This document shows positions 167-61,246 of a stretch of DNA of 64,000 bases, in pieces. Where the stretch lies: positions 181,412,001 to 181,476,000 of the forward strand of contig OZ024743.1 in the NCBI GenBank assembly GCA_964016885.1. The letters run 5' to 3'. This stretch comes from Eledone cirrhosa. Lineage: Eukaryota. Positions within the stretch are counted from its first letter, which is position 1. The number at the start of each line of letters is the position of its first letter. The notes below the pieces were generated by a model. It was not told where the DNA came from. It saw nothing but the letters and a program-made list of their open reading frames with translations, and ran no database searches. Made by a program: the position numbers and the translations under genes.

Positions 167-1117
167 CAGTTGCATTTATCTTGCCTTATGTTCATACGAG
201 TTATCACCAAGTCACAACCTCAAGAGACAAGGTCCGTCATGTTCAAGAAAGAACACACATACACACACACATGCATCTTTAGGTGTTTAGACTTGTGATG
301 TACTTATATTGACAGAATCTTCCTTAGTACATGGGCAGTTCCCATTAGTACTATATTTTGTATTTCTCCTATACGCGGGTTTCCTGGGATTTGCGATAAG
401 TAATCATTATCCCCCTTAGTTATCATTCCTAGAGCGCCTACAACCACTGGTATTGTTTTAGTTGTCAATTTCCACATTTTTCCAATTTCTATCTCCAGGT
501 CCTTATACTTGCTCAATTTTTCAAATGTTTTTATAGATACATTCTTGTCTATTGGAACGGGTATATCAATTAGAAGGCATACCCTCTTTTTAAAGTGCTT
601 CAGTAATATATCAGGTCTATTTGCATCTATTTTTCGGTCTGTTTGGATGCTAAAGTTCCACAAGATTGAGATGTGATCTTTTTCAAGTACAGGAGGTGGT
701 TGATTCTCCCACCAATTCTTTTGATGGGACAGGTCAAAATGGTTACACATTATCCAATGTATGTATTGTGCAGCTCTGTCGTGCCTGTTTAGGTATTCGG
801 TTGGAGCTATAGGACTGCACATTGAAATTATATGATCAATGGTCTCTGGTTGTTTTTTACATACACGGCATAATGGGTTGCATCCATTTTTGATTATGTT
901 GGCTTGGTAATTTTTTGTTGGTAGACACTGATCTTGTGCTGATATAATTAGTCCTTCAGTCTCCGATTTCAGTCCAGAGGATGCCAACCACTGATGGGTT
1001 AAAGTTTTGTCAACATCAGGATTGTTAGTTCTTTCTGGGTATTTTCCAAACAGAGGCTTTTCTTGCCATTTCTTAGCCAGTTTCTGTAGCAGTTCTTTCT
1101 TTGCAGTTACTTTTACA

Positions 1118-1166: not shown

Positions 1167-1380
1167 GGCGACCTACGTAGGAAATCGTATCATCGTGAGC
1201 TTCGCAAAGGTTTGTTGTTTTCGTTTGTTTAAAATTGCCATTTATCGAAAATTTTTGTTGTTAGCTATTTATAAAGTCACAAAATTTGCTTTCTAAAAGG
1301 GACACTCAAAAAGATTGGGGCCTTGAGCCCAAAATTTAAACTTTTATAATTATCAAACAAAAAATTTATTAGAAAAAATC

Positions 1381-3288
1381 ATGGACGACTCACAGCTACA
1401 CCAAGTAGCTGAGAGCCTTCCACACAAACTAACACCTCACACCAACACCACCATTATAAATATTACTACGATTGCCAACACTAAAAATATAAGCAGTAGC
1501 AATAATTTAAATTTGTCTCATGCAGACATTCATTTCCCACCATTACCAATGACTGCAGGCATTGAAGCCGCCACCCCCACCCCCACCACAGCGACAACAG
1601 AAACAAAAGAAAAAAATAAATTATCTCGTGACATCGAAATGGATTCACCCAGAATGGACTCTTCCACACAGAACACCACTGACGCCACCACCACCACAAC
1701 TGAAACTAAAAATAACAATAACAAAAGTAACAATAACAACAACAACAACAACAATGAGAATAACAACATCGTGTCTTTTGCCAAAGCAGCTAAAACATGC
1801 AAAACAATCCAGGTAACTCAGGAGGAATTAGATGAAGCCAAGAAATTGGTAAAGAAAGATGGGTACAGGGTCAGCCTCACCCCCTCCCCCTAATAAAATG
1901 GAGCATCGGCGCCTATGCACCGTGTCTTATCGGACGATTAACATAAAATCGCGCCGAGAGGAACGGGCAACCGAGTCCCAAATCCAAAAAGCTTTGGGAC
2001 ATGTGTGGGCAAAAAAAAACCACATCAGATGTGGGCAGAAATATGGAACCGTGGACGTGTTCTTTGGAACACCACAGGAGGCCAGAGAACACTCCATGGA
2101 CCCATTAAGAAGTGACGACTTCACACTCGTCCCAAGCTATTGTGGCCAGAGACTCGTGAAGATCAGGGTGACCCACGTTCCAACGGCTATCGAAATTCCC
2201 TGGCTAATGGCTGCCGTCCTCGCCGGCATCGAGGCCAACACCAAGATAATCGAAATAGCTAAAGAAAAGCAGGGGAACGGGTCCGGATCTGGGATGGAGC
2301 TCCTGATCCAAGCGGACCAAAAAAGGATTGAGGAGATCCCAGAGGTAATAGACCTCACTGACGGCAGCCACCTCACCGTAATCGTCGAGGGCAGAAGGCC
2401 TATGTGTGTCGTTTGTGGTGAAGGAACCCACCTAAGGGCTTTCTGCCCTCAGGCTAAAAGGTTGAGGCCACCTCTCTTACCCACCCCAGTGACTCAACCA
2501 TCAACACTACCAGCAGCAGAAATGGCAGCAACAATTGTAGCAGCAACAACAGAAGCAACTGTAACAGCAACAACCCCAGCAACAGTAACAAAACCAACAC
2601 CACCACCCAACGCGCCAGAACTAGCACCAGCGCCTACACCATCCACCACGCCACAACCAAAACCAACGCCTGTGGAGGATTTTCCACTCCCCGACCTATC
2701 GCAACTGTGGACAGATTGTGACGACGGGGAGTGGGAAACGGTATCAGGAAAAAATAAAAAAATAAAAAGAAGCCAAAAAAGAAAAAATCCTCTTCCTTCC
2801 CCCTCCAAAAACAAAATACAGAGGGAAACAAATAAACTATCAAACAAAAAAGTTAGGACAGCTATGCCACCATCCACACCAGCATCACCAACCCCATCAC
2901 CACAAACACCAACACCATCACCATCATTAACCCCAACACCACAATCACCAACACCACAAAAGTCACCAAAAAGCGAAACAGAAAAAAAAACACAACAAAC
3001 GCAAACAAAACAAAACAACCAAAACGATACACACTACACAGCATTAAATTTGAACAACAAACAATTATTACACTACATCCAACACAACACCAGCATCACA
3101 GAAAAAGACTACACAACAACCCAAAAGTTCACACCATACAAATCACTCGCACCACACAGAAAACATACACGACACTAGACTTCCGACAAACACTCTCCGG
3201 GAGGATTTATAAGGACATCCTTCCGGAGGAGGCTACAAGCAGTGAAAAGGATGGACAAACCACCCTTCCTCTACAAGAAGTAAGGTAA
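1381..3288 (+). pseudogene. Tx1 copy A ORF1 (Gag-like, CCHC zinc knuckle, Pro/Thr-rich), frameshifted
   Basis: ORFs 1381-1893 and 1859-3178 plus a terminal frame ending ...LPLQEVR* at 3286-3288; motif EGRRPMCVVCGEGTHLRAFC. Confidence 0.85.
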
Positions 3289-3322
3289 GTGGTCTTTCCC
3301 ATCTTTTCCACTCCATTTCAAC

Positions 3323-6300
3323 AAGACCTCACTCAGAATAGGTAGCAGATATGCCGGTGGCTTGGGGTCGTCATGGAAGCAGGGCCACCTGCTCAACGAC
3401 CTCAGGTCACTAAACATAGATGTAGTGGCCTTCAGCGAGACCAGAATCTCCCAAGCACGGGCCTTCGCACCGATCTTCGGCGGCTACGATGTGTACGCAT
3501 CTCCCAGCCGTCCTGGATCGGGGAGAGGAGTTGCTGTGCTTTTTCGGAGAGGTTTGGATCTCGCCATACGGGCCATCTTCCTGGACCCAGAAGGTAAGTT
3601 GGTGGTGCTGGACGTGACCAGCGGAGACGGGCAAGCTTTCAGGCTAGTGGCCGTCTATGCCCCGACAGGAGCAGGGCGGGATGATTTCTTCCGGCGTCTG
3701 GAGACCTTTCTTGGAACGTCCTGCTCTTTAGTGTTAGTGGGCGACTGGAACGGGATCTTAGATGCACGCTGGGACTGTGTGGGATTAGCGAATAGGGGAA
3801 GAGGGTGAAAGAGCCTCACCAACCTGCTCAGGCGTTTTGAACTGTCTGACCGGTACCGATTGGATTTCCCGAATGTGCCAATGTCGACTTGGACAAACCG
3901 CATAGGGTCATCCAGATCATATCTAGATAGAGTATTTTGTAGGGAAATAGATAGGTCTAGCATAGACTGTCCACAATTCAAGATAGTCAGCTACACGGAC
4001 CACAAATTCGTGATCTGTGTGCTTGACTTAGATAGGCTTCATAGACGAGGAACCGGCTACTGGAAGCTAAACGCGTCCTTACCAGCGCGCAAGGCCTACA
4101 GAGACCGGATTAGCGAACTAGTTAAGCGGGCGTTGACGGGGGCCATCGTCAACAACAAGTGGTGGTTTGCTCTGAAAAGAGCGATTAGAATAGAGTTCAT
4201 TAGGTTTAGTAAGGCTTTAGCAATAGAGAAAAATAGAGCAGAGGGGAAACTAGTTAGAAATTTAGACGAGGCGCTTAGCAAAGGCATCGCGACCGACGTA
4301 CTTGCGGCGAAATTGGCCCTTGACCAATTCTTCAATGCAAAGCACGAAGGTTGCGTTGTCAGAGCTAGGGTGCGTGCTCTCAGACACGAGGGAACGAAAG
4401 CCGTTCAATGGGCCCGAGTGGCGGAGGCGCGTCGTGGCAACAAAGTCACGATCCGGTCTTTGGTGGACCACGACGGGTGCATGCTACTCGATCCCAGGCA
4501 AATGTGTGAAGCTTTTCAGCGACACTTCGCACAGCTGTTCGGGAGCAGCGGCGGGCCAGATCGAGGGATGGACTTTAGTGTCTACCTCGACGGACTGCCG
4601 CGGCTCTCGGCCACTGAGGTGGAGTGTTGCGAAAAGCCGATAACAGCCACTGAAGTACGGGAGGCAATGACTGGCTGCACAAGGGGTAAATCGCCTGGTT
4701 TGGATGGTCTGCCCTATGAACTTTACGTACAGATGCCAGACTTGTTCGGAGGCCTCTTGGTGTGATCTCTACTGCAACTGGCAACAGAACGGAAGAAATC
4801 CCAGCTCTGTGAGCCGAGTAGCTGTGGCGCTGCTGAGAAAGGATCCGAACAAGGGGGATAACGTAGATAATTTCAGGCCCATAACTCTGCTAAACACAGA
4901 GTTCAAGATTTTGGCCAAGGTGCTAGCAAAGAGGTTGGCGCTTTTCGTTGGTGGTCTGGTGGGAGAGGCGCAGACATGCGCCATTCCCGACAGATCCATC
5001 CACGACAGCCTCCACCTCATGCGATACATCGTGAAGAGGGTAGCTAAGGAACCTGGCACGGGTGAGTCCTTGATCAATTTAGATAGGTCGAAAGCTTTCG
5101 ATAGGGTCGACCATCGTTACCTAGCGGCAGTCCTGAGGGCGGCTGGCTTTGGGCCCGTCTTCAGAGGCTGGATCGCTGCCATGCACAGCGACATCAGCTC
5201 TGTGGTGAGAGTGAACGGTCACCTTTCGGAACCGTTCAACTTCATATGCTCGGTCCGCCAAGGATGTCCCCTCTCGTCCCTCTTGTACGTATTGACTCTC
5301 GAGCCATAACTGCACAAACTAGAGACGTTGAGGAGGATCCCGCGCGAACTAGGATGCGGAAGATCCGTATCAGCATATGCGGACGATGTCACCGTAGTGG
5401 TGTCGAACGCCAAACACATCGAGGCGATCGGCACTACACTAAGAGAATAAGAAGCGGTGAGAGGAGCAATGATCAACCAGGAAAAGTCAGTAGGCCTGCA
5501 GCTCGGCACCTGGAGAGGCAGGTCCATGCCGTCCAACAGCGTCGTCGGGCGGTGGACGGACGGACCGGTTAAATTGCTAGGGGTCTGGTTCGGTCCGGAC
5601 CTCCAGACGGACAAAAACTGGGACGAGGTGACGAGCAGGGTGGCTTCTCTCACCCAGAAATGGGCGGAGAGGAAGCTATCCCTGAAAGGTCGAGCGGAGG
5701 TGGCTAATGCGTACATCGCGTCCGTCATCTACTACCGCCTGACCGTCGTACCTTGTCCTAAGCCCCGCCTGACTGCGCTGGAGCGTTTGCTCTTTCGCTT
5801 TTTGTGGAAAGGATGCGCTCCGATGGTCAGGCGGTCTATCTGCTGTCAACACCCGCTACGTGGAGGGCTGAGCAAGCCGTGGCTGATGATGCGCAGACAC
5901 GCGCTCAGGCTACGACATCTCCACCTCTTCCTCGATGGTGATCAGGTGTGGTCGCCGTTTGCTAGACACGTCTTTCCCCAGCTCGTCTCCTTGGCGGGGC
6001 TGCAGTCCTGGGTCAAGCGAAGACCGAGAGGGAGCGTTTGGAGACTGGAATGCCTTCAGGCGCTCCTCACAGCCCTCAACCAATCGGGCAATGTGATCGG
6101 TGGAAACTCCAACTTGGCGTTCTATAGAGGATTAGTGGAGGGGAAGAACGACGACGTACTTGGAGAAACTCTAGCCGTCGATGAAAATCAACTAGCCAAT
6201 CTCTTCGGAAGGACTTTCGGGCCGGGGCCTATGGACAACTTCCAGAAATCCCTGGCCTGGCAGTGCTACCGAGGAGCCTTGCCAGTTCGGGATAAACTCT

Positions 6301-6746
6301 ACAGGCATGGAGGTGCCGTCAGCCGGGCATGTCCGAGATGCCCGCAGGGCGACGAAACCGTTCTGCACGCACTCGTCCAGTGTCCGAGCATTGCTGACTT
6401 GTGGGTTTATGTCGAACACCTGCTGTTACGTGTAGGACGGATCCAGCTATCAGCTGAGTCCATCGTGAGGATTGCCCCGCCCTCTTCCTTTAGCCGGGAA
6501 GGGCAGGCAGTTTTTATCTGTCTGGTGGCCATGGCGAAAGAGATAGTATGGTGGACACGTTTGAAAGGGCTGAAGACGAGCACTTACTTCTTCGGTGATG
6601 CCCTGATTAACTTTTTCAAATTTCATTTGAAAAGGAAAATCAGGGTAGAGAGGGAAGTTCTCTCTTCCCAGCATTTTGTTGAAAGATGGATGAGAGAAGC
6701 AAGTATGGCCCGAGTGAATGGGCCTACTCTGAGTATGTGTCTGTAA
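3323..6746 (+). pseudogene. Tx1 copy A ORF2 (APE endonuclease-RT-CCHC), inactivated
   Basis: Start codon appears mutated to AAG at 3323 (caacAAGacc vs caacATGgcc in copy C). Motifs FSET, GDWN, SYLDR, TDH, KSPGLDG, FRPITLLN, QGCPLS, AYADD, CPRC..ETVLHALVQC. Several stops and frameshifts. Confidence 0.92.
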
Positions 6747-6991
6747 ATTAAAGGTGGAAAACTGGGAGAGGACACTTGCCCTGGTGGTCAGGGTCACTGT
6801 GGCCTTTTAATGGGCTTTCTCCACAAATGTCCCTCGGAAGTCTCCCCCCTATTGAGGAATTTTTCATTGTTATTTTTTATTATATCCTCTGTTTTTTTTA
6901 CACGCAGAAATGCCCATTTGTACCGTCCTGTATTCTCCTGTACTGTCCTTAATGTCTACTTTATGTAAACCCTTGTGGTTAATAAAGAAAG

Positions 6992-7037
<46 letters not shown>

Positions 7038-8267
7038 GTGGAAGGGATGCGCTCCCATGGTCAGACGATCCATCTGCTGTCAACACCCGTTGCGTGGAGG
7101 ACTGGGCATGCCATGGCTTATGATGCGCAAACATGCGCTGAGGCTGCGACATCTCTGGTGCTTCCTTGACGGTGAACAGGTTTGGTCGCCGTTCGCCAGG
7201 CACGTTTTCCCACAGATCGTCTCCTTGACGGAGCTGCAGTCCTGGGTCAGGAAAAGACCTAGGGATAGCGCTTGGAAACTGGAATGTCTCCAGACGCTCT
7301 TGCCGCTCTGCCAGCTGGACACCAGTAGCGGTGGAACATCCACTTCGGCGTTCTATAGAGGACTAGTGGAGGGGAAGAGCGACGACGTTCTCGGAGAGAT
7401 CCTGGGCGTCGAAGAAGATCAGCTGTTTGCTCTCCTCCGGATAACTTTCAGCCCAGGGCCTATGGATAACTTCCAAAAATCCCTGGCCTGGCAGTGCTAC
7501 CGGGGAGCATTGCCGGTGCGAGATAAGCTATACAGGCACGGAAGTGCCGTCAGCCGAGCCTGTCCGAGATGCGCGCAGAGCGACGAAACCGTCGTGCACG
7601 CACTTGTTCAGTGCCCGAGCATTGCTGACTTGTGGAGCTATGTCGAACAGTTGCTGTCGCGTGTAGGACTGATCCGGTTATCGACTGAGTCCATTGTGCA
7701 GATGGTCTCGCCGTCTTCCTTCGAGGAGGAAGGGCAGGCGGTTTTCATCTGCCTGGTGGCCATGGCGAAAGAGATTGTGTGGTGGACAAGGTTGAAAGAG
7801 TTAAAGACAGACACTTTCCTCTTCGGCGAATCCCTAATTAACTTTTTCAAGTTTCACTTGAAGAGGAAAATCAGGGTGTTGAGGCAAGTGCTGTCTTCTA
7901 GCAAATTTGTTGAAAGGTGGGTGAATGTAGCGAAAATGGTCCGAGTGAACGGGACCGCTCTGAATATATGCTTGTAGTTTGAAGAATGGGGAAACAATTG
8001 AGAGAGGGCGCTTGCCCTGGTGGTCAGGGTGGCCGTGGTCTTTTGTGTGGTTTTCGCCACGAGTATCCCGCGGAGGCTCCCCTCCTCCCATTGGGGAATT
8101 TTTCATTGTTTCAATTTTCATTTTTATTATTTATATATATATTTCTGTCTTTTTTTCTTTTTCGTTTCTTATATAAATAATAAAAAACCTTTAACGCACA
8201 AAACCCACATCGTATCGTCCTGTGCCGTCTGTAATGTTTTTCTTGATGTCAGCCTTTGTGGCCAATT
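7038..8267 (+). mobile_element. 5'-truncated Tx1 copy A' in tandem behind copy A
   Basis: ORF2 C-terminus from WKGCAPMVRR to the stop at 7977, homologous 3' UTR, short (ATC)n tail at 8268-8278. Confidence 0.9.
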
Positions 8268-8787: not shown

Positions 8788-8788
8788 T

Positions 8789-9679
8789 GTTTCTTTATTT
8801 GCCACAAGGGCGCAAAAAGATGGGGACAAATACAGAGTGGGGAGTTTACATACATGCGTGTAAAAATATAGAATTAATAAAAATAACAAATAACAAATAA
8901 CAATTAACTATTGAAATCCCCAATAGGGAGAGGCGTTACACATGGGTTGTACACTTCCCGAAAAAATGTACAACCCTCATCTCCAAGAGCACCAAGAGTG
9001 AGAGCTCCTTTCCTCTCTTCCTCTTTTTTCTCAACCTACAGGTTTATATAAAGAGAAGGCCCAACCACTCGGGCCATCCTTGCCACATTCACCCACCTTT
9101 CGTAAAATTTGCTGGGGTGCAGCACCTCTCTCTCCACTCTGATTCTTCTTCTAAAATGATATTTGAAGAAGCGAACCAGTTGTTCGCCGAAGAAAAAGGT
9201 GTCTGACCTCAGCCCTTTCAGTCTCGTCCACGATATAGCCTCTTTCACCATAGCCATTACACAGAGAAAAACCGCCTCTCCTTCATTTTTAAAGGAAGGT
9301 GGCGGTTTGATCGCAATAATGGACTCGGTGGTCAACCGGATTTGTTCCACCCGTGACAGTAGTCGTTCTGCATAGCCCCACAGGTCGGTAACGCCCGGGC
9401 AGTGTACGAATGCGTGCGCGACGGTTTCCTCGTCCCGCACGCATCTCGGACAGATCTTTTTCGAGGGATCCCTGCCCGGGCGCCCGTGTCTGCAGAGCTT
9501 GTGTCGAACGGGTAGAGCTCCTCGGTAGCACTCCCAGGCCAGGGACTTTTGGAAGTTGTCCATCGGTCCCGGGCGGAATGTCCTACCGAACAGACTGGCC
9601 AGTTCGTCTTCCTCTACGCCTAGAGTTTCTCCGAGAGTGTCGTCGCACTTGCTGCGGACTAACCCTTTATAGAATGACG
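8789..9679 (-). mobile_element. 5'-truncated Tx1 copy B' between (AGAT)n tracts
   Basis: ORF 9036-9563 MDNFQKSLAWECYRGALPVR..CPRC; AATAAA-ended 3' UTR; (AGAT)n at 8700-8786 and 9680-9781. Confidence 0.9.
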
Positions 9680-9781: not shown

Positions 9782-9995
9782 TTCTTTATTTACCATAAAG
9801 GCATAAAAAGAAGGGACAAATACAAAGAAGGAGTTTATATACAATCGAGTAAAAAGGGTATAACATGAAAATAATCGAAAATAACCTCAAAAGGGAGGGG
9901 ACGTGATGGGGGTTGCCCACACCCCCGAAAAAGTGTGCAATCCTTTGCCCGGGGAGCACATGGAGAAGGTGCTCCCCACTCCTTTACTTCTTTAC

Positions 9996-12900
9996 CTACA
10001 GGATGGTATACAGAGAAGGCCCATTTACACGAGCCATTCTCGCCACTATCACCCACCTTTCATAAAACTGCCTGTGGCCAAGCACCTCTCTCTCCATTCT
10101 TATCCTTCTTCCGAAGTGATATCGGAAGAAGTAGACCAGACTATGGCCAGAGAGGAAGTTGCCTGACCTCAGACCTTTCAATCGTGTCCACCAAACAACC
10201 TCTTTCAACATGGCTATTACGCACAGAAAAACCGCCTTTGCTTCCTTTGTGAAGAGGGGAGGCGGTTTGATTGTCATCACGGACTCGGCGGTCAATTGAA
10301 TCGGCGCCACCCGCGACAGCAGTCGTTCGGCGTAGCCCCACAGATCAGCCACGCCCGGACATTGCACCAATGCGTGCGCAACGGTTTCTTCGTGACGCAC
10401 GCATCTAGGGCAAATCTTTTTTGAGGAATCCCTGCCCGGGCGCCCGTGTCTGTAGAGCCTCTCTCGAACGGGTAGAGCCCCTCGGTAGCACTGCCAGGCC
10501 AGTGACTTCTGGAAGTTGTCCATTGGTCCTGGGCCGAAAGTCCTACCGAACAGGCTGGCCAGTTCGTCTTCCTCCATGTCCAGCGACTCTCCAAGGGTGT
10601 CATCGCCCCTGCTAGCCACCAGCCCTCTATAGAATGATGAGGTAGATTCTCCACCGATGGCCTGGCCCGCTTGCCAGAGAGCCCTGAGCGCCTGAGCACA
10701 CTCAGTGTGCCAGTCTCCCAGTTTTCCGGATCTTTGCTTGACCCAGGACTGTAGCTCGGTGAGCGAGACGAGTCTCGGAAAGGCTCGTTTCACGAACGGA
10801 GCTCACACCGGTTGACCAGTGAGGAATACCTGTAGGTGCCGTAGCCTTAATGCATGCCTACGCATCATCAACCACGGCATCCCCAGCCCTCCTTTCGAAG
10901 GTTGTTGGCAGCAGATGGATCTTCTCACCATAGGAGGGCGCTTCTTCCAAAGAAATTGGAAGAGCATGCGTTCCATGGTGGTGAGTGTTTCCTTAGGGCA
11001 AGGCACGACAGTCAGGCGGTAGTAAGTGACGGACGCTATGTAAATGTTCGCCACCTCCGCCCGGCCTTTTAGGGACAGCTTACACTTGGCCCATTTCTGG
11101 GTTAGTGCAAACACCTTGTTCGTAACCTCGTTCCAGTTCTTTTCCACCTGGAGGTCCGGTCCAAACCAGACCCCAAGCAACTTTACCGGGCCCTCCGTCC
11201 AGTGTCCGACGACACCGTCGGGAGGCATCGGTCTGCCTCTCCACGTTCCGAGTTGCAGCCCGATGGATTTTTCCCGGTTCAGTTTCGCTCCTGACAACCT
11301 TTCGTAATCCTCCAGTAAGGTACCGATCGCCTCGATCTCCGAGTCGGTCGATACCATTACTGTTACGTCATCGGCGTAGGCCGACACCGCTTTGCTCAAT
11401 CCTGGTTCCAGGGGGATACCCTGCAACAACTCCAACTTCCTCAGTAAAGGCTCGAGAGTCAATACGTACAGAAGGGAGGAGAGAGGGCACCCCTGTCGAA
11501 TGGATCGTGTGATTTCGAACGGCTTCGAAAGGTAGCCGTTCACCTTGATCCTAGAACAGATGTGGTTGCTATGTAAGGCAGTGATCCAGCCTCTGAAAAC
11601 AGGACCGAACCCAGCCGCCGCTAGCACCGCATCCAGGTAACCGTGGTCGACCCTATCGAAGGCCTTAGACTGATCCAAGTTGATCAGGGCCCCACCGAAG
11701 CCGGGTTTGTTGCCAACCCTCTCTATGATGTATCGCATGAGGTGGAGGTTATCGTGAATGGATCTGGATGGGATAGCACATGTCTGCGCATCTCCCACCA
11801 GGCCACCCACGACAAGCGCCAACCTCTTTGCTAACACCTTGGCCAAAATCTTTAACTCTGTGTTTAGCAGGGTTATGGGCCGAAAATTATTTATACTATC
11901 TCCGTTGTTCTCGTCTTTCCTCACCAGCGTGACTACGCCCTTGGCTACAGAACAAGGAATTCTCCCGTTCTGCTGCCAATTGCAGTAGACCGCTTCGAGG
12001 AGTTCGGAGAAGAAGACCGGCATCGAGACCTGGAGATTTGCGTCTGCTGCATTGGCTCAGCGCATCTCCGATCTCATCAGCCGAGATTGGTCCCTCGCAG
12101 GACTCTGCCTCTTCGCTCGAGAGACGCGATAGGCCGTCGAGGTATGGACCGAAATCCACGTCCCCGCCCGGACCCTCGCCTCCCCCGAACAATCGGGCAA
12201 AGTGCCTTTGAAAGGCCTCGCACATCTGCTTAGGCTCCCGGATCACCCGTCCATCTTCGTCTTGCAACGACCGGATGGTGGATCGATTTCCACTCTTAGC
12301 TCCTGTCACGCGGGCCCAGCCAACGGCTTTGGCCCCCTCATTACCTAGAGCACGTATTTTACTTCGAATGACGCAGCCTTCGTGCTTTGCATCGAAAAAC
12401 TGGTTCAAGGCCGTCCTCAATGCCAGCACTCTGGCCACATCTTCGCTCTTGATTGCCTCTTCTAATTTACCTGTTAATTCTTTCTCGTTTCTATTCCTAT
12501 CGGCAGCTAACATCTTGCTATAACTTATTGATTCTGTTCTAATCTCTCTTTTGAGAGATGCCCACCATCGGTTGTTGACGATTGCACCCGTCAACCTCTC
12601 CTTAACTAATCTGCTAATCCGGTTTCTGTAAGTCTCTTTTGCCGGTAAAGACAAATTAAGTTTCCAGTAACCGGGACCCTGTTTATGTGTTTTCTCGAGA
12701 TTGACTACGCAGGTCACTAATTTGTGATCCGTGTAGCCAACCGTGCGCATTTCTGGACAGCTTAATATGTCCCTATCCTTACTTCTAACTAAGAATCTAT
12801 CTAAGTACGATCTAGATTGACCACTGTGGTTTCTTCAAGTCCAGGTAGGCACAGTTGGAAAATCTAGTCGATATCTATCGACCAAGTTAAAACGGTCGAG

Positions 12901-13404
12901 TAACCCCTTGAGGCTGTTACACCCCCCTCTATTAGGACATGCTCCTGCATAGTCCCAACGTGCATCTAGGATGTCATTCCAATCCCCCGCTAGAAGCAGG
13001 GAACGCGACGTTCCCAGAAAAGTCTCTAAACGCTGGAAGAAGTCGGGCCGTTCAGCTCCGAAGGGGGGGTAGACGGCGACCAGTCTTAAGGCCGCACCTT
13101 CACTACTACCAACGTCTAGCACCAACAAACGACCCTCCGGGTCCGAGTGCACAACCTGTACGGCAAGACCCAGGTGTTTTTGCAGCAGTACGACAACCCC
13201 ACCCCCACCTCCAGGTTGACAGAGAGATGCATGCACCTCAAAGTCATCGAAGGTAGGGGCCAGCTGCCGCACGACGCTGATCCGAGTCTCACAGATAACC
13301 ATTACATTTATACCACATGACCTGAGGTCATTTAGAAGCTTTGCTTGCTTCCAAGTTGAGCCCAGGCCACGTGCATTTAAACATCCTACTCTTAACACAT
13401 CCAT
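9996..13404 (-). pseudogene. Tx1 copy B ORF2 (APE-RT-CCHC)
   Basis: Starts MDVLRVGCLNARGL; motifs ICET, GDWN, TDH, FRPITLLN, QGCPLS, AYADD, CPRC. In-frame stop at 12835-12837; frameshifts near 12023 and 10800. Confidence 0.92.
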
Positions 13405-13437
13405 GTGGGCGGCAGAGCCAAAGGAGAGTGTAGAGAC

Positions 13438-15352
13438 CTACCTTTCCGCTTCCCGGGGTTCGGGTCGCACGACTTCCATGGGGTCCGGGGTGTTGGGTGA
13501 AGGGGTGTCTTGTGGTGGTGTGGGGTCATCAGTGTGTGGTGGGGTTGGGGTGTTTGGAGTTGTGTTGGGGAGGGGAAGGGGAGGGGGAAAGCTTTTTAGT
13601 AGGACGCGGTTTATGGGTTTGACAGAGGGTGGTCCTACGTCCTCCTTAAAATCCTTTTTTAGTTTTTGGTAGAGGTTCATTGGGATCTTTATTAATTTTA
13701 AATGTGGGTAGTTTTCTGAAGAAACAAAGTTTACACCTTCGGTTTGTACCGAAGGATTATTGTATATGAGTTCATTTAATTTATTATTGTTTCTGTTGAT
13801 GTAAGTATAGTGTAATGTCTTTTTTTCGGATGGTGTGAGTGTTTCGAAGAGGGGAGGGGCAGGTTTTGTTTTGTTTGTTGCTGGAGGGGTGTTTTCTGTT
13901 TTGTTGGATTGTGTTGAGATTTGGGTGGGGGTTGTTTGGCCTTGTGTGTTTTGCACATGTTTTCTTTTTTTTCCTTTTAATCTGTCTGAAGGACTCCGTT
14001 TCTTCCTCCGAATTCGGGGGGATTATCTTCAGTGTTGGAGGGAAGAGGTATGTTTGCTGGTAATGTTTCCGTGTTGGTTTTCTTTGTGGGGGAGATGGAT
14101 GTCACTATGTTGGACTGTGTTGTGTGTTGTGTCTGCGGTGGTTGTGTTGTTTTATTGAGTGAGGGGTTGGGTGGGCCTGTATTTTGTTTTGGGGTAATAT
14201 GTTGTGACTGTTTGTGTTGTGGTGGTGGTGTAGTTTTACTGAGGGACGGGTTGGGTGGGACTGAGTTTTGTTGTTTGTTTATCTGTTGTGGTGGTGGTGG
14301 TGGAGCTGGTGTTGGTAGCAGGGTTTTCTTTTTGTTGAGTTGGGGACAAGCGGCCTTCAGGTGCCCTCTGCCTGCACAGATATGACAGGATGGCCTTCTC
14401 CCCTCCACGCTAATGTTTATATACCCGTGGCCCTCTAATAGGATTCTGTCGGGTATTTGGGCGATGCGTTCAGGCTTCATTTGCACTACCAGCTCTATAC
14501 CTGTTCCACTGAACGCATTGCCTGTGGTTTTCCCAATGGAAATCACGTTGTCATTCACTGGATCGATGAAGCCAGCTATGAGCCAGCAGTAGTCCACATC
14601 TGGCATCATTGCATCCAGCCATATGCGTTGAGTTCTTTTACCCATATAAGATGGATAAAAGGTAAAATTTTTCGAACGAATCGGTGACAAAGCACATTTT
14701 TTTGCCGCCGATTCGTTCTTCATAATAATTGCTAGGCTTCCATAGAGTCTGTCTTTTCTTATGAAAGTGGTTTCATTAAGTACTTCTGTGAGTACTGTTT
14801 TGATATCTGCTTGAGAAGGCTGTTCAGGTTTTTTTAAAGTGTTGTTGATGGTGCGGAACACGACCGTTCTACTTTCAATGTCTTTGGTGAGTTCTTGAGG
14901 CATTTTAACCGATAAAATACCATTCTCTCCTTCACTTATGTATTGTTTGGCGTCTGTGATTCTTCGTGCCACATCTGAAATATTTTCGGGTATATATGTC
15001 AAAGATTTCTTTGTTTTTTGTGCAAATGAAATCTTGACTCTGTCGTCTGCTTTGCTTTCTGTTATGGTGTTATTTTCAAATGTTATTTTTGTGTTTGTTG
15101 TGTCTTTGTTTGTGGTGTTAGTATTGTCATGCAATTTTTCAAATTTTTTTTTTCGTTGTTGGAATCCATGTCCAGATTTGTGTTTTCGTCATTTTTCTCC
15201 GCAGATTCGTCTGTTTTTATTTTAATTTTTCTTTCCTTCTCTATGACGTTAGTTGGGAAGGAAGGGGGGACTAAAGCGTGCGAGCTTACAACTCTTACCG
15301 CTGTCCCCCCACCACTGTTTTCGTTCGCTTTTTTAAAAAACAGGTTTTTCAC
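13438..15352 (-). pseudogene. Tx1 copy B ORF1, frameshifted
   Basis: ORFs 15083-15352, 13977-15134 and 13438-13956; CCHC motif EGRRPSCHICAGRGHLKAAC. Confidence 0.85.
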
Positions 15353-15529
15353 CTCTAGGAGGGGTAAAAATGAGCTGACCCACCGTCTGACAGTTCAGAC
15401 GGGGGGTCAAGCTACACAATAGTATCAAAATTAAATTTGAACTCACAAAATTTCCGCAATAAATTTGAACAAAACTTCTGCGCGAAGTGAATTACATCCA
15501 CACTGTAGAACAGACGACAGCTGGATTGT

Positions 15530-19787: not shown

Positions 19788-19995
19788 GAGTTTGAACGGA
19801 CGTCTTTTTTCTCGTTCTCGTAAGTTTATTTATTTACCTGTCAAAACTTATTTATTGAATTTTTTTGTTGTTGTGTAAGGCATACAAGCCCTTGGACTTT
19901 GCCCTGTGAAGGGGAAAGAATAATATTTGGGCCTTTTGGCCCAAATATTTGAACTCTTTTACATTTTTTTTTTTAATTATCGAAAAAAAAAAAAT

Positions 19996-21902
19996 ATGGC
20001 TGACCACGCCCCCCAGCGATATGTCTGCTGTCGTGCGACTACGACGTAGAAGTTGAGAGGAGCGCTACGGCGAAATTCACAGAAATTGATACAACAAACA
20101 CCACCACAAACAATGTAAACAAAGACACCAATGATAACAACACTGAGAACTCTAATTTTGAAAAAAAAATGACAGTTACAGCGACAATGAAAATACAGAT
20201 AACAAAAAAAATGACAAATGCAACAACAATATCAACACCACTAACATGAAAACAAATAGCGACAACACCAACAGCAACAATACCAACTGCACCGATAACA
20301 ACGGCGGCACCAAAGACAACAATGATAACAGTGACAGTGATAACAACAACAACACCAACAAGAACAACGACAACAACAACAACACCCCCAAAGACAACAA
20401 GAACACTTTCGCTGCGGCAGCAGCAAAAAAGAGGCCATACTTCAACATGGACCTCTCAAAGAAAGATGAAAAGTTGGCCCAGGCATGGAAGCTCATCAAG
20501 CAAGAGCAAACCTGGGCCAACTAAACGGTCCCGGTAGAAGCTATTGAGGCAGTGGAGCGCAGAACGGTGCATTATAGCTACATCTCAGCACAAACCAAAA
20601 GGGCAGCTTTAATCCCACAAGCAGATGTCGAAGTCGCGTGAGGTGCATCAGAGAAGACACCCAGTACATAGAGAGGGGCAGACAGTACGGCACCATTTCG
20701 GTGCTGTTCAAGTCAGAAGCCCTCGCTATGAGACACGCTATCCCACCAGGACTTGACATGTGGTGGCTTCTGGGATGTGTGATTGTGGAGGGGACGGATA
20801 CTGTCCCGATAGAAGTGACCAGAACGGCCAGAGAGGACTGGTCCGGGGTTGACTTGGAGATACTTCTCCAGATCAGACCGGAGAATGTGAAGACAATCCC
20901 GGACCACATCCGCCTTCAGAATGGGACTGTCATTCACATTATGACCGAAGCAGAAGGCCGCATTGTTTTGTTTGTGGGGGAAAAAAATCATTTGCGAGCC
21001 TTCTGCCCTCAACTGCTGAAAGATGCAAGGGGTCGAAATGCTCCACTGCTGCCGACGCCGGGGCGAGGACCACAACCAACACCAGCACCGGCAAAACGAC
21101 CAACAACAACACCAATAGAAAGACCACCACCAACATTGACCACCCAGGGGGAAAACGAGTAAAGTTGTCAAATTCCCCCTCCCCCAAAAATACACACACC
21201 AATAAAAACATAAACACACACACAGACACACTTACAGACACAGACCCCTCATCTACCAGTAGTGAAGATGAGGGAAAACCAAAATCCCCCAAAATACAAA
21301 AAAGGAAACACAATAAAGAAAGAAAAAAACTCAACAAAGCACAAAATCACCCACAATAAAAAAACGCAGACACCACCCACGCAAACATCTCTCCAATAAC
21401 ACCAACATCAACACCACCATCACCATCACCAGAATCCCCCAAACGCAAACAATCGAAACAGACGCAAGAACAAATATACACACAAACATCTGAAACCACA
21501 GACACTGCACTCACAACAAACACAGACACAACCGAAACAACACCACCAAAACCATCTCCACCACAGCCACGCAAACAAATAAAATCACACCAACAAAACA
21601 TACAAAACTTTGTGCTCGTCAGGAGGGCCAACAAGGAACTGATGGCCCTCGTAGCACGAAGTGAAAATATACAAAAAGAGGGGGAAATGTTTAAATCGAG
21701 CACATTTCGCGTGCCGGAAGATTTGGTTCTGGTGCGAATGTCGCTCGATTTATACAAAGAGATACGAGACAGCTTTCTTCGGGACGTGGGAACCCTGAAC
21801 GTAAAACCCACTTCAAGACTTTTAAAGGGGTTCCCAAAAGAAACCCCACCAACTATGGAGGTCGAACCACCCGACCTTCACAAGAGCCCGGAAGGTAAGT
21901 AA
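19996..21902 (+). pseudogene. Tx1 copy C ORF1, multiply frameshifted
   Basis: Fragments FAAAAAKK, RGRQYGTISVLF, HLRAFCPQL and PLLPTP are homologous to the ORF1s of copies A and B; ends ...HKSPEGK*. Confidence 0.8.
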
Positions 21903-21934
21903 ACCTCTCTTCTCTCTCTTTTTAACCTGCCAAC

Positions 21935-24900
21935 ATGGCCGTATTAAGAGTAGGAAGTTTAAATGTTCGAGGCCTGGGATCGTCCTGGAATCAGGGTCAC
22001 CTGCTCAACGACCTCAGGTCTCTAGAAATGGATGTAATTGCCGTCAGCGAGACCAGGATTTCCGACACGCGCGCACTAGCCCCAATTTTCGACGACTATC
22101 AGATCTTTGCATCTGTTAGCCGGCCGGGAATGGGAGGCGGGGCGGCAGTACTGTTTAGGAAAGGCCTGGATCTCGAGGTAAGGTCGATCTTCCGAGACCC
22201 GGATGGGAAGTTGGTGGTCCTGGACGTGAACAATAACGAAGGTGGTGCCTTTAGACTGGTGGCCGTCTATGCCCCTACTGGGGCAGGACGGCCGGACTTC
22301 TTTATACGCCTGGAAGCCTTTCTGGGTACGTCTCGCCCTTTGCTGTTAGCGGGGGACTGGAATGGCATCTTAGACGCACGCTGGGACTGTTTGGGAGTAT
22401 CCGATAGGAGCGGGGTGGGGGGGGGGGGGGTGCAAAAGAACCTGATCAGCCAGTTCCAACTGTCTGACAGGTACCGACTAGATTTGCCTAATGCGCCAGT
22501 GTGGACCTGGGCTAACCGCATAGGGTCATCTAGATCGTATATAGACAGGATATTCATTAGGAAAATAGACAGAAATAGTGTAAGCTGTCCACGTTTTAAA
22601 ACGGTCGCCTATTCAGATCACAAGTTTGTGATCTGTATGGTCGACCTAGATAAGACGCGTAGGTTAGGACCTGGTTACTGGAAGCTAAACATGTCATTTC
22701 CGGCACTTAAGGCTTACAGGGACCAGGTCAACAATTTAGTTAAGAAAAAGTTGACAGGGGGAGTCGTCAACAATAGATGGTGGGGGGGGGGGCTCTCAAA
22801 AGAGAGATTAAAGTAATGTCGATAGAGTTTAGCAAAGAAGTAGCGTTAGAGAAAAATAGAAAGGAGGAGTTGGTAGATAAGTTAGACGAGGCTATTGGTA
22901 GTGGCATTGCAACTGATGTGCTAGCGGCGAGAATGGCATTAGACCATTTCTTCAATGTGAAACACGAAGGTTGCATTGTCAGAGCTAAGGCGCGTGCTCT
23001 GAGAAACGAGGGAGCCAGAGCTGTTCGATGGGCCCGCGTGGCAGAGGCGCAGCGTGGTAATAAAACCACGATTCGGTCTTTGGCGGACCGAGACGAACAC
23101 GAGCTGAGCGATTCCAAGCCTTTCGCCAACAGTTTGCTCGGTTTTTCGGGGAATGTGGCGGGTCAAAGATGGTGGTGGACTTCAATCCCAACCTCGATGG
23201 CTTGCCGCATCTCTCGACGGCTGACGCTGGGCGCTGCGAAAGGCCAATCACTTCAGCCGAGATTCAGGATGCCATTGTAGGCTGCATGAGGCGCAAGTCA
23301 CCCGGTTTGGATGGTCTGCCCTACGAGCTTTACGTAAATATGCCAGACTTGTTCTCCAATCTCCTCGAAGCCCTCTACTGCAACTGGCAGCAGAACGGGA
23401 GTATTCCCAGTACTGTGAGCCGGGGCGTAGTGATGCTTATAAGGAAAGACGAGAACAAGAGGGATACATTAGACAACTTCAGGCCCATAACTCTGCTCAA
23501 CACAGAGTTTAAGATTTTGGCCAGGGTGTTAGCGAAGAGGTTGGCGCTTGTCGTCGGGGATTTGGTTGGGGAGGCGCAAACTTGCGCAATCCCAACCAGG
23601 TCCATACACGACAACCTCCACCCAATGCGATACATCATAGAGAAGGTAGGGTGTAAACCTGGCTTCGGTGGGGCTCTGATCAATTTAGATCAATCGAAAG
23701 CATTCGATATGGTCGACCATCGTTATCTGGAGGCTGTCCTCAAGGCGGCTGGCTTCGGCCCCGTCTTCAGAAGCTGGGTCGCTGCAATGCACAGCGGCAC
23801 CTGTTCGGTGGTCAAAATTAATGGCCACCTCTCGGAACCGTTTCAGGTCTCCCGATTGGTCCGTCAAGGGTGCCCTCTCTCCTCCCTTCTGTACGTATTG
23901 ACTCTAGAGCCTTTACTTCGGAAGCTGGAGCTGTTGCAGGGTATCCAGCTCGAAATGGGACGCACCGGTAAAGTTGCTCGGGCTTTGGTTCGGGTCAGAC
24001 TTCCAGGTGGATAAGAATTGGGAAGAGGTGACGGGTAGGGTAGCCAGTCTCACCCAGAAATGGGCTGGGAGGAAACTATCACTGAAAGGTCGAGCGGAGG
24101 TGGCGAACGCGTACATCGCGTCCGTCATCTACTACCGTATGATAGTCGTCCCTTGCCCCCGTTCGCGCCTCGCCATCTTGGAGCGGCTCCTCTTCAAATT
24201 CTTGTGGAGGGGTCAGGTTCCGCAGGTGTGGTCGCCGTTTCTCAGACGGGCCTTTCCGCAGCGCGTTTCTTTGACTGAGTTGCAGTGCTGGGTCAAGAAG
24301 AGACCGAGACTGGGTAACTGGCATCTGGAATGTTGCCAGGCACTCACTGCCCTCTACCAGGCGGGCAATGAGGTCAGTGGAACTTCCACTCTCGAGTTCT
24401 ATAGAGGATTAGTGGTGGGCAAGTGCGATGACGCACTCGGAGAGGCTCTGGGAGTCAACGAAGTCGAACTAACCAGTCTGTTCCGGAGGACTTTCGAGCC
24501 GGTGACGATGGATAATTTCCAAAAATCCCTCGCTTGGCAATGCTACCGGGGGGGGGGGGGGGGGGCACTGCCGGTTTGAGATAAACTCTACAGGCACGGA
24601 AGTGCTGTCAGACGGACCTGCCCGAGATGCGCGCAGAACGACGAAATCGTTCTGCACGCACTCGTTCAGTGTCCGTGCATTACTGACTTGTGGAGTTATG
24701 TCGAACAGCTGTTGTCGCGTGTAGAACGGACCCGGCTGTCGGCCGAGTCCATAGTGAAGATCGACCCGCCGCCTTCTTTTGGCCAGGAAGGGCAGGAAAT
24801 TTTCCTCTGTCTGGCGGCAGTAGCGTTAGAGGTTGTATGGTGGACGAGGTTGAAAGGACTGAAGACAGACACTTTTCTCTTCGGCCAATCCCTCATCAAC

Positions 24901-25034
24901 TTTTCAAGTTTCACTTGGAAAGGAAGGTGAGGGTGGAGAGAGAAGTGCTGCCCTCCAGTACATTTACTGAAAGGTGGGTGAATGTGGCGAGAATGGCCCG
25001 TATAAGTGGGCCTACTCTGGACATGCGCCTGTAG
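21935..25034 (+). pseudogene. Tx1 copy C ORF2, YADD region deleted
   Basis: Starts MAVLRVGSLNVRGL; motifs VSET, GDWN, SDH, KSPGLDG, QGCPLS; jumps from GIQLEMG straight to the PVKLLG-equivalent near 23960. Confidence 0.9.
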
Positions 25035-25268
25035 ATAGGTAAATTTGAGGAGGAGAAGGGTGCCCTTATAGGGTGCTCTCGAAGCGTCGGGTCGTTCAGG
25101 ATTGGTGGGGTACCTGAGCGAACCCTGGGAATTTTCTTGCTGTATTTTTATTGTTACTTTGTTATTGTTATTCATATTGTTTACTCGATTTTTCTGTAAA
25201 ACCCCACTGTCTTGGTCTTTTGTATTGTCCTCTATATGTCGGCCCGTGTGGCCAATAAATGAAATCAT

Positions 25269-25905: not shown

Positions 25906-26036
<131 letters not shown>

Positions 26037-26712
26037 AGAGATGTCGCAGCCTCAGCGCGTGTTTGAGCATCATCAGCCACGGCATGCCCAGCCCTCCACG
26101 CAACGGGTGTTAACAGCAGATGGAGCATCTGACCATGGGAGCACGTCCCTTCCATAAAAAAAGAGTTGGGCCGGGGCGAGGCACAACGGTTAGGCGGTAG
26201 CATTCACTACCTCTGCTCGACCTTTCAGGGACAGCTTCCTCTCGGCCCATTTCTGGGTGAGAGAGGCCACCCTGTTCGTCACCTCGCTCCAGTTTTTCTC
26301 CATCTGGAGGTCCGGACCGAACCAGACCCCGAGCAATTTAACCGGTCCTTCCGTCCAGCGCCCCACGACGCTGTCGGGCGGCATGGACTTGCCTCTCCAG
26401 GTGCCGAGCTGCAAGCCCACCGACTTTTCCTGGTTTAACTTTGCTCCTGTCACTGCTTCATATTCCTTGAGAGCGGTGCCGAGCATCTGGACATTTCCGG
26501 CGCTTGACTGGGCCCGCTCTGATTATGCGCCTGTAGACTGAGGAGTGGAAAACTGAGAGAGGGCGCTTGTCCTGGTGGTTAGGGTGGCCGTGGTCTTTTT
26601 TGTGGCTTTCGCCACGAGTGACCCTCGGAAGTTTCCTCCCTATTGCGGAATTTTTGAATTTTTTGATATTTCTATCTTCTTGTTATAACCTTTTTTACAC
26701 GGCCAAAACTCA
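26037..26712. mobile_element. Rearranged Tx1 fragment: inverted ORF2 piece joined to a forward ORF2 end and 3' UTR
   Basis: Minus 26037-26486 encodes LGTALKEYEAVTG..RHLWCFLDG; plus ~26510-26712 encodes GPALIMRL* followed by the copy-A-type 3' UTR. Confidence 0.85.
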
Positions 26713-35050: not shown

Positions 35051-37310
35051 ATTTTAGTTCAAGGCCACATATATGTCGCTACCCAAACAGTTAAACGTTT
35101 TAGTTCAAGGCCACATATATGTCGCTACCCAAACAGTTAAACGTTTTAGTTCAAGGTCACATATATGTCGCTACCCAAACAGTTAAACGTTTTAGTTCAA
35201 GGCCACATATCTGTCACTACCCACACAGCCTAACGTTTTAGTTCAAGGCCACATATCTGTCACTACCCACACAGTTAAACATTTTAGTTCAAGGCCACAT
35301 ATCTGTCACTACCCACACAGTTAAACATTTTAGTTCAAGGCCACATATATGTCGCTACCCAAACAGTTAAACGTTTTAGTTCAAGGCCACATATCTGTCA
35401 CTACCCACACAGTTAAACGTTTTAGTTCAAGGCCACATATCTGTCACTACCCACACAGTTAAACGTTTTAGTTCAAGGCCACATATCTGTCACTACCCAC
35501 ACAGTTAAACATTTTAGTTCAAGGCCACATATCTGTCACTACCCACACAGTTAAACGTTTTAGTTCAAGGCCACATATCTGTCACTACCCACACAGTTAA
35601 ACGTTTTAGTTCAAGGCCACATATCTGTCACTACCCACACAGTTAAACATTTTAGTTCAAGGCCACATATCTGTCACTACCCACACAGTTAAACGTTTTA
35701 GTTCAAGGCCACATATCTGTCACTACCCACACAGTTAAACGTTTTAGTTCAAGGCCACATATCTGTCACTACCCACACAGTTAAACATTTTAGTTCAAGG
35801 CCATATATCTGTCACTACCCACACAGTTAAACATTTTAGTTCAAGGCCACATATCTGTCACTACCCACACAGTTAAACATTTTAGTTCAAGGCCACATAT
35901 CTGTCACTACCCACACAGTTAAACGTTTTAGTTCAAGGCCACATATCTGTCACTACCCACACAGTTAAACATTTTAGTTCAAGGCCACATATCTGTCACT
36001 ACCCACACAGTTAAACGTTTTAGTTCAAGGCCACATATCTGTCACTACCCACACAGTTAAACGTTTTAGTTCAAGGCCACATATCTGTCACTACCCACAC
36101 AGTTAAACATTTTAGTTCAAGGCCACATATCTGTCACTACCCACACAGTTAAACATTTTAGTTCAAGGCCACATATCTGTCACTACCCACACAGTTAAAC
36201 ATTTTAGTTCAAGGCCACATATCTGTCACTACCCACACAGTTAAACGTTTTAGTTCAAGGCCACATATATGTCGCTACCCAAACAGTTAAACGTTTTAGT
36301 TCAAGGCCACATATCTGTCACTACCCACACAGTTAAACGTTTTAGTTCAAGGCCACATATCTGTCACTACCCACACAGTTAAACGTTTTAGTTCAAGGCC
36401 ACATATCTGTCACTACCCACACAGTTAAACGTTTTAGTTCAAGGCCACATATATGTCGCTACCCAAACAGTTAAACGTTTTAGTTCAAGGCCACATATCT
36501 GTCACTACCCACACAGTTAAACGTTTTAGTTCAAGGCCACATATCTGTCACTACCCACACAGTTAAACGTTTTAGTTCAAGGCCACATATCTGTCACTAC
36601 CCACACAGTTAAACGTTTTAGTTCAAGGCCACATATCTGTCACTACCCACACAGTTAAACGTTTTAGTTCAAGGCCACATATCTGTCACTACCCACACAG
36701 TTAAACATTTTAGTTCAAGGCCACATATCTGTCACTACCCACACAGTTAAACATTTTAGTTCAAGGCCACATATCTGTCACTACCCACACAGTTAAACAT
36801 TTTAGTTCAAGGCCACATATCTGTCACTACCCACACAGTTAAACGTTTTAGTTCAAGGCCACATATCTGTCACTACCCACACAGTTAAACGTTTTAGTTC
36901 AAGGCCACATATCTGTCACTACCCACACAGTTAAACGTTTTAGTTCAAGGCCACATATCTGTCACTACCCACACAGTTAAACGTTTTAGTTCAAGGCCAC
37001 ATATCTGTCACTACCCACACAGTTAAACGTTTTAGTTCAAGGCCACATATCTGTCACTACCCACACAGTTAAACATTTTAGTTCAAGGCCACATATCTGT
37101 CACTACCCACACAGTTAAACATTTTAGTTCAAGGCCACATATCTGTCACTACCCACACAGTTAAACATTTTAGTTCAAGGCCACATATCTGTCACTACCC
37201 ACACAGTTAAACATTTTAGTTCAAGGCCACATATCTGTCACTACCCACACAGTTAAACATTTTAGTTCAAGGCCACATATCTGTCACTACCCACACAGTT
37301 AAACATTTTA
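35051..37310. repeat. 46-bp tandem satellite, ~49 copies
   Basis: Unit (a/g)ttttagttcaaggccacatatctgtcactacccacacagttaaac, head-to-tail with no spacers. Confidence 0.98.
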
Positions 37311-51897: not shown

Positions 51898-51928
<31 letters not shown>

Positions 51929-54718: not shown

Positions 54719-54749
<31 letters not shown>

Positions 54750-57700: not shown

Positions 57701-58773
57701 GTTGGTATTGGTGGTGGTTTGGTGATTGTGTTGTTGTTGTTGTTGTTATTATTGGTGGTGGTTTGGTGATTGTGTTGTTGTTGTTGTTATTATTGGTGGC
57801 GGTTTGCTAATTGTGTTGTTGTTGTTGTTATTATTGGTGGTGGTTTGGTAATTGTGTTGTTGTTGTTGTTATTATTGGTGGTGGTTTGGTAATTGTGTTG
57901 TTGTTGTTGTTATTATTGGTGGTGGTTTGCTAATTGTGTTGTTGTTGTTGTTATTATTGGTGGTGGTTTGCTAATTGTGTTGTTGTTGTTGTTTTTATTG
58001 GTGGTGGTTTGGTGATTGTGTTGTTGTTGTTGTTATTATTGGTGGTGGTTTGGTGATTGTGTTGTTGTTGTTATTATTATTGGTGGTGGTTTGGTAATTG
58101 TGTTGTTGTTGTTGTTATTATTATTGGTGGTGGTTTGGTAATTGTGTTGTTGTTGTTGTTATTATTGGTGGTGGTTTGGTAATTGTGTTGTTGTTGTTGT
58201 TATTATTGGTGGTTCTTTGGTAATTGTGTTGTTGTTGTTGTTATTATTGGTGGTGGTTTGGTGATTGTGTTGTTGTTGTTGTTATTATTGGTGGTGGTTT
58301 GGTGATTGTGTTGTTGTTGTTGTTATTATTGGTGGTGGTTTGGAAATTGTGTTGTTGTTGTTGTTGTTGTTATTAGTGGTGGTTTGGTAATTGTGTTGTT
58401 GTTGTTGTTGTTATTGGTGGTGGTTTGGTAATTGTGTTGTTGTTGTTGTTGTTGTTGTTATTGGTGGTGGTTTGGTAATTGTGTTGTTGTTGTTGTTGTT
58501 GTTATTGGGGTGGTTTGGTAATTGTGTTGTTGTTGTTGTTATTATTGGTGGTGGTTTGGTAATTGTGTTGTTGTTGTTGTTATTATTGGTGGTGGTTTGG
58601 TAATTGTGTTTTTGTTGTTGTTGTTGTTATTGGTGGTGGTTTGGTAATTGTGTTGTTGTTGTTGTTATTATTGGTGGTGGTTTGGTAATTGTGTTGTTGT
58701 TGTTGTTGTTATTGGTGGTGGTTTGGTAATTGTGTTGTTGTTGTTGTTATTATTGGTGGTGGTTTGGTAATTG

Positions 58774-58828
<55 letters not shown>

Positions 58829-59501: not shown

Positions 59502-59532
<31 letters not shown>

Positions 59533-60511: not shown

Positions 60512-60542
<31 letters not shown>

Positions 60543-61215: not shown

Positions 61216-61246
<31 letters not shown>

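Follow-up and report, generated by a model that had tools for sequence, protein, structure and literature searches.

We analysed a stretch of 64,000 nucleotides (nt) from Eledone cirrhosa (assembly GCA_964016885.1, contig OZ024743.1, forward-strand positions 181,412,001 to 181,476,000), hereafter the window, which contains three full-length Tx1-like long interspersed nuclear elements (LINEs), A, B and C. Each has two open reading frames (ORFs), and a 5' splice-site (donor) consensus of the kind recognised by U1 lies where ORF1 ends and the gap before ORF2 begins. LINEs are thought to avoid splice sites, splicing being harmful to them. An earlier interpretation made from the letters of the window (the sequence-only reading) had placed the motif in all three elements, and it is present in each, as listed here in window coordinates:

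1167..6992 (+): element A, full-length but decayed, flanked by (TTA)n tracts
3282..3290 (+): donor consensus of A, AAG/GTAAGT; ORF1 stop TAA at 3286-3288
3291..3325 (+): spacer of A and decayed ORF2 start, the latter AAG at 3323-3325, placed by homology
9782..15529 (-): element B, full-length, flanked by (TAGA)n tracts; a high-copy family in public DNA runs
13436..13444 (-): donor consensus of B, AAG/GTAGGT; ORF1 stop TAG at 13440-13438, ORF2 ATG at 13404
19788..25268 (+): element C, full-length with internal deletions, (TTA)n before and (TAG)n after
21892..21900 (+): donor consensus of C, AAG/GTAAGT; ORF1 stop TAA at 21900-21902, ORF2 ATG at 21935

The distances from the GT to the ORF2 start are 38, 37 and 40 nt in A, B and C, as previously read (the start of A having decayed to AAG), and the spacers are indeed pyrimidine-rich; none contains an AG after the motif. 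The claim that the ORF1 stop overlaps the motif stands for A and B, while in C the overlap is limited to the final motif base. Because ORF1 is disrupted in all three elements, its terminal frames rest on homology, which is clear for B and C and weaker for A. The spacers and ORF1 ends have diverged, and the motif is unchanged. On a weight matrix for donors, three of the other 17,013 sense positions in A, B and C score as high as the weakest of the three motifs or higher; the chance of such a donor is about 1% per 60-nt window. In B the motif is the sole strong donor across 5.7 kb, and in A an identical 9-mer (AAG/GTAAGT) lies within ORF2 at 3591-3599 (codons E-G-K-L), with no counterpart there in B or C. 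Donors in the 5' untranslated regions (UTRs) are inconsistent and weak (scores 0.9-5.6). The motif has the conserved AG/GTRAGT form looked for in a functional donor, although the elements share ancestry and A, B and C are therefore not three independent draws.

Related families and the limit to one branch

The junction of element B (13381-13452) shows no variant at a level of at least 5% across four public DNA runs, so its motif is the usual form of its family. None of the runs listed as containing the element is an RNA run, from which nothing follows about its expression. Three more families in public runs share the motif, read from loose contig ends (24 listed of 102) in runs that represent three samples and two organisms. 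These have GAG/GTAAGT upstream of an ATG, at a distance of about 27 nt in run X1 and about 28 nt in X4 and X5, and GAG/GTAGGT in X5, which seems to lie in phase 0 without an overlapping stop, its frame having been inferred from a 30-letter end.

More distant relatives were found in two prokaryote genome bins that contain apparent animal DNA, here treated as a second host, with 68 related loci, 67 of them in one bin (G001). Contigs of this bacterial genome bin (for example L001, L031 and L057) carry head-to-tail arrays of intact elements with a period of 6.4-6.9 kb and several subfamilies; no Rfam target was found between the units of these arrays, and four second-host loci gave nothing credible in Rfam. 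In a direct comparison the second host matched the window in microsatellites only. Reverse transcriptase (RT) identity is 54-59% between second-host and window elements, compared to 76-79% among A, B and C, and in a FastTree phylogeny of 118 RT segments the two sets form one clade with support 1.0. In the main second-host lineage the TAA stop comes first and is followed by G/GTAAGT, with the ATG 13 nt further on and no pyrimidine tract; the 9-mer is identical in 64 of 64 reads of overlapping loci, and the following 7 nt show five variants. The other bin holds one decayed copy with GAG/GTAAGT 11 nt before the ATG, and another copy without the GT. A second G001 lineage (L057, 3 loci) lacks the junction donor and has a TAATG stop-start overlap at L057:3993-3997, showing that one member of the clade manages without the motif.

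Across the clade the distance from motif to ORF2 start spans 11-40 nt, and conservation of the motif does not depend on it. As stop phase and start distance both differ among window and second-host lineages, the motif is independent of either. According to the sequence-only reading, the match to the U1 donor consensus marks an RNA signal under selection, and protein constraint does not account for it; both points are strengthened by the main second-host lineage, where the motif is invariant and non-coding; variants elsewhere stay within GTRRGT. Comparison of the sequences thus gives good support to the view that the donor motif at the ORF1 end is not due to chance and is under selection as a U1-type site.

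The further implication that the motif extends across Tx1 elements was not borne out. Distant loci were taken as the best 80 of 509 confirmed metagenome loci (from 9 of 64 collection parts); an ORF2 start was present in 61 of the 80, a set in which one family is represented more than once. A comparable donor within 80 nt before the ORF2 start occurs in one of these 61 (L128, score 5.9), where about 1% per locus is expected, and among 49 distant loci with an ORF1 call, some of them doubtful, the top donor score near the stop is 5.1. A junction donor as a general Tx1/L1 trait was rejected on this survey, and the donor is confined to one LINE branch. L128, alone among the distant loci, has donor-like sites at both ends of a 408-nt spacer, scoring 5.1 at the ORF1 stop and 5.9 at 31 nt before ORF2. 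The RT tree contains no named Tx1 reference; a Keno-like locus (L106) that lies directly after a 5' piece of U2 small nuclear RNA (L106:1-87) falls in the sister group, with support 0.85. Among viral contigs a search with the endonuclease alignment gave no match, and one with the RT alignment gave three loci.

Predicted pairing with the ORF2 end and further splice-site candidates

Each window element has a junction whose predicted pairing partner is the end of its own ORF2, the arms lying about 3.4 kb apart:

about 3279-3342 (+): 5' arm of the predicted duplex of A, spanning donor, spacer and ORF2 start
6722..6785 (+): 3' arm of the predicted duplex of A, surrounding the ORF2 stop TAA at 6744-6746
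9954..10020 (-): 3' arm of the predicted duplex of B, surrounding the ORF2 stop TAG at 9998-9996, in a weak acceptor-like context
25010..25075 (+): 3' arm of the predicted duplex of C, surrounding the ORF2 stop TAG at 25032-25034

The predicted energies are -57.5, -53.8 and -55.1 kcal/mol for A, B and C. The ORF2 end is the best of 221, 218 and 208 windows respectively, a value reached by 0 of 300 shuffles in each case, and every junction finds its best partner in its own ORF2 end, although the junction of C with the end of A comes close (-51.7). Bases after the start codon differ among A, B and C in step with their partners on the opposite arm. Within the 3' arm of A, positions 6773-6780 (CACTTGCC) form a complement of the donor, and in every element the donor lies inside or at the edge of the predicted duplex. 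The spacer pyrimidines pair with a purine run after the ORF2 stop, while the start region of ORF2 has as its partners the acceptor-like bases at that stop; the pyrimidine-rich make-up of the spacer may thus follow from spacer and motif together forming one arm. With the partner arm present, predicted accessibility of the donor falls from 0.33 to 0.13 in A, 0.34 to 0.26 in B and 0.54 to 0.46 in C.

For the second host the initial windows gave poor duplexes (-17 to -29 kcal/mol); once re-centred on the top-ranked site, located 60-95 nt ahead of the stop, they gave -51 to -60 kcal/mol, and -41 for L057. In L016 the best site is tied with one elsewhere. The main second-host lineage shows little covariation (among 44 predicted pairs, 2 compensatory and 7 one-sided changes, from 12 distinct units of which two are shifted by one base). 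As a general trait of such elements the duplex was rejected, since none of 17 distant loci ranks its own ORF2 end first; these are the loci with both ends, after omission of three duplicates and of loci lacking an end.

Both second-host lineages (L001-L068) carry a second GTRAGT 17-43 nt after the ORF2 stop, except that in L026 and L027 it sits at the ORF2 stop, where the frame continues. All 112 matches in overlapping loci are GTRAGT with A or G at +3, and six variants were seen, one of them weakened. This second donor is present even in L057, where removal of ORF2 by it is impossible, and suggests that donors occupy the non-coding gaps. All 38 distinct second-host 3' segments retain the DNA behind it. 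Window elements have weak donors only after ORF2 (scores 0.1-3.8). With branch points assessed by eye, strong acceptors downstream of the junction donor number none in B or C and two in A, none of them conserved in the window families. Each of A, B and C has three or four copies of AATAAA at 250-720 nt upstream of the donor, and no conserved poly(A) signal was found between the donor and the element end. Of 233 joints in DNA contigs aligned to B, the 15 listed include none at the donor, and the same holds for the two joints and the 24 listed loose ends (of 102) from the alignment to its junction; as contigs can reveal that a joint is present but not that it is absent, we do not count this as evidence.

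Readings of the junction donor

Judged from sequence, the signal is real, selected and limited to one branch, and it may be used as a dock. More specifically we favour, though tentatively, a reading in which the motif is a U1 docking site in the gap between ORF1 and ORF2 that stays mostly unspliced in the full-length RNA. U1 would bind the donor on the growing transcript and protect full-length RNA against early polyadenylation, in the manner described for the donor of the plant element EVD. Once ORF2 had been transcribed, the duplex to its end would close over the donor, and in cells it may keep the donor unused and hold the ORF2 start in place for reinitiation by ribosomes that have completed ORF1; some spliced RNA could arise as a minor product beside docking. 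We prefer docking to excision of ORF2 because donors lie in both non-coding gaps and one of these is unable to remove ORF2, because no acceptor is conserved across the clade, because ORF1 already has its own stop, and because every examined copy keeps its would-be introns.

The closest parallel in the parts of the literature consulted is the shGAG RNA of EVD and other plant Ty1/Copia elements, retroelements in which the structural gene likewise ends with a conserved donor of U1 type, and where U1 both splices and represses early termination (PMC5580714). Docking and excision are therefore not exclusive. EVD differs in being a long terminal repeat element with one Gag-Pol frame, in which splicing is needed to create a stop and the intron is short and mapped from RNA (PMC5580714); here ORF1 has its own stop, any acceptor is a candidate and a 3.4-kb duplex is predicted. 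Human L1 is a LINE with conserved donors, and according to the account of its spliced integrated retrotransposed elements (SpIREs) most of its RNA evades splicing despite these sites, for which structural masking has been proposed; its donor, unlike the present one, falls within a RUNX3 site of the 5' UTR, and spliced retrocopies of it are known (PMC5860796), whereas no such copy was seen here. Termination-reinitiation in SART1 (UAAUG) and mammalian L1 likewise concerns a single RNA whose two ORFs are separated by a short spacer, and the TAATG overlap of L057 is a likeness to SART1, but the portion of that account used here mentions no donor or duplex spanning ORF2 (PMC5972666).

Several observations weigh on the other side. 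Of three second-host elements, two show an increase in predicted donor accessibility with the partner arm present and one shows no change, and given these mixed outcomes equilibrium folding does not show a consistent masking switch. An unused donor leads to nuclear retention of RNA in human cells (PMC11629677), a cost that docking would have to offset. There is little for U1 to repress, AATAAA being absent inside ORF2 of A and B and poly(A) signals being few downstream, and L057 has an AATAAA 139 nt before its ORF1 stop with no donor there. A joint from the donor to the ORF2 stop would immediately recreate a stop for ORF1 in B, and would do so two codons later in C. Finally, the second-host 3' UTR has a pyrimidine tract followed by TAG 140-280 nt after the second donor, kept in every one of the 9 subfamily groups as well as L057, which by its sequence looks like a genuine acceptor.

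These last two points belong to the strongest alternative, which we regard as a serious possibility though not a probable one: a true, regulated donor by which part of the transcripts would lose ORF2 as one intron, giving an ORF1-only message, with the duplex setting the balance and the acceptor lying at the ORF2 stop in the window families or in the 3' UTR in the second host. In its favour, a strong donor lies at the stop or no more than 5 nt from it, YTGTAG ends ORF2 in four of the five 3' ends in the window, the tract and TAG of the second host are conserved, and EVD provides a precedent (PMC5580714). However, the acceptor-like bases at the ORF2 stop are mostly those that pair with the ORF2 start, the pyrimidine tracts there are weak (at best 13 of 17), copy A ends in TAA, and L026 and L027 have lost the AG at the ORF2 stop and kept the donor. 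In A, B, C and G001 alike ORF1 has its own stop without splicing, which would make splicing unneeded for an excess of ORF1 product. All 40 listed G001 ORF1 ends (of 68 candidates, in arrays that have been homogenised) adjoin an ORF2 start.

An elaboration of the docking reading, which we consider unlikely, would make the pairing a check on completeness. U1 would sit on the donor during transcription of ORF2, and only RNA reaching the ORF2 end would zip over the donor and the ORF2 start, thereby escaping splicing and nuclear retention and being copied; RNA that stayed unzipped would be spliced to an ORF1-only message or destroyed. If true, this would be a structure-gated splice switch across a whole gene in a LINE.

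We think it rather improbable that the motif is kept solely for the RNA duplex or as a signal for reinitiation at ORF2, its likeness to a donor being incidental. The GG core of the donor is paired in all predicted duplexes, with eight unbroken pairs in A, L057 retains a duplex with TAATG and without the donor, and coupling in SART1 requires RNA structure (PMC5972666). Yet the partner bases vary between lineages and the motif is constant, and in the main second-host lineage the duplex pairs just GGTA and one G of the motif while its unpaired bases are invariant too, so that pairing alone does not explain it; the second donor, moreover, obeys the same consensus outside this duplex. It is very unlikely that the 9-mer includes a donor by coincidence and is in fact a site for a transcription factor or other protein, an explanation put forward for the human L1 5' UTR donor within its RUNX3 site (PMC5860796), since its variation tracks the donor consensus (A or G at +3 and +4, -3 free) at two separate positions.

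A short intron of 51-59 nt fusing ORF1 in frame to ORF2, through an AG in the first ORF2 codons, can be read by eye in A, B and C but is highly improbable: in the second host it is excluded, as ORF1 there stops before the donor, an ATG is present at the ORF2 start of B, C and the second-host elements, spacers are as short as 11-13 nt, the AGs belong to Arg-Val-Gly codons, and neither of the two joints listed is of this kind. Chance or unselected shared descent, for which the relatedness of the families and the identical 9-mer in ORF2 of A might be cited, is scarcely credible for a motif expected in about 1% of windows and kept at 54-59% RT identity although its flanks cannot be aligned.

A near-perfect donor kept over such deep divergence, together with pairing to the far end of ORF2, may point to an unrecognised control of full-length RNA and of the ratio of ORF1 to ORF2. 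The family is also abundant in the host genome, and each full-length sense insertion brings a strong donor into host genes. Our search of the openly accessible literature, at the level of listings and abstract openings, turned up no paper that describes either a donor or a long-range duplex where the ORFs of a Tx1 element meet. The octopus repeat paper reports 13 recently active L1-Tx1 families and contains no mention of splicing.

Further features of the window

Assignment of the elements to the Tx1 clade agrees with their domains and surroundings. Pieces of ORF2 match PF03372, PF00078 and PF13966 (N-terminal apurinic/apyrimidinic endonuclease, RT and C-terminal zinc finger), a separate ORF1 carries a Cys/His knuckle CxxCxxxxHxxxxC in A and B, and the microsatellite tracts that flank A, B and C alike correspond to the target preference of the clade; ORF2 DNA identity among the three is 68-73%. 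A Pfam search with the window ORF1s gave no match, nor did an Rfam scan of the window at gathering score. The Tx1-clade elements Kibi and Koshi (microsatellite) and Keno (U2) share the domain layout, insertion into microsatellites and, for the U2-flanked sister element, the neighbouring target, but the targets here are (TTA)n and (TAGA)n, and no splice signal at the ORF junction is described in the part of that work consulted (PMC4494074). In Octopus bimaculoides a kinesin gene model (P0241) ends in element-derived sequence whose ORF2 start is 60% identical; as a gene model joining element pieces is a prediction, it was not used as evidence of splicing.

Two shorter copies lie between A and B and lack the junction:

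7038..8200 (+): copy A2, of a related family, 5'-truncated; ORF2 ends in TAG
8788..9679 (-): copy B2, of a related family, 5'-truncated; ORF2 ends in TAG

A further ORF2 fragment is found at 26020-26495 (-), and an unrelated ORF of 172 amino acids at 304-822 (-) gives the impression of a piece of another retroelement. The remainder of the window includes a 46-bp tandem array at 35052-37310 (49 copies, 97% matches) and a 41-bp satellite of about 405 copies (47109-64000) that extends past the window end, its plus strand nearly all G and T with a GC skew near 1.

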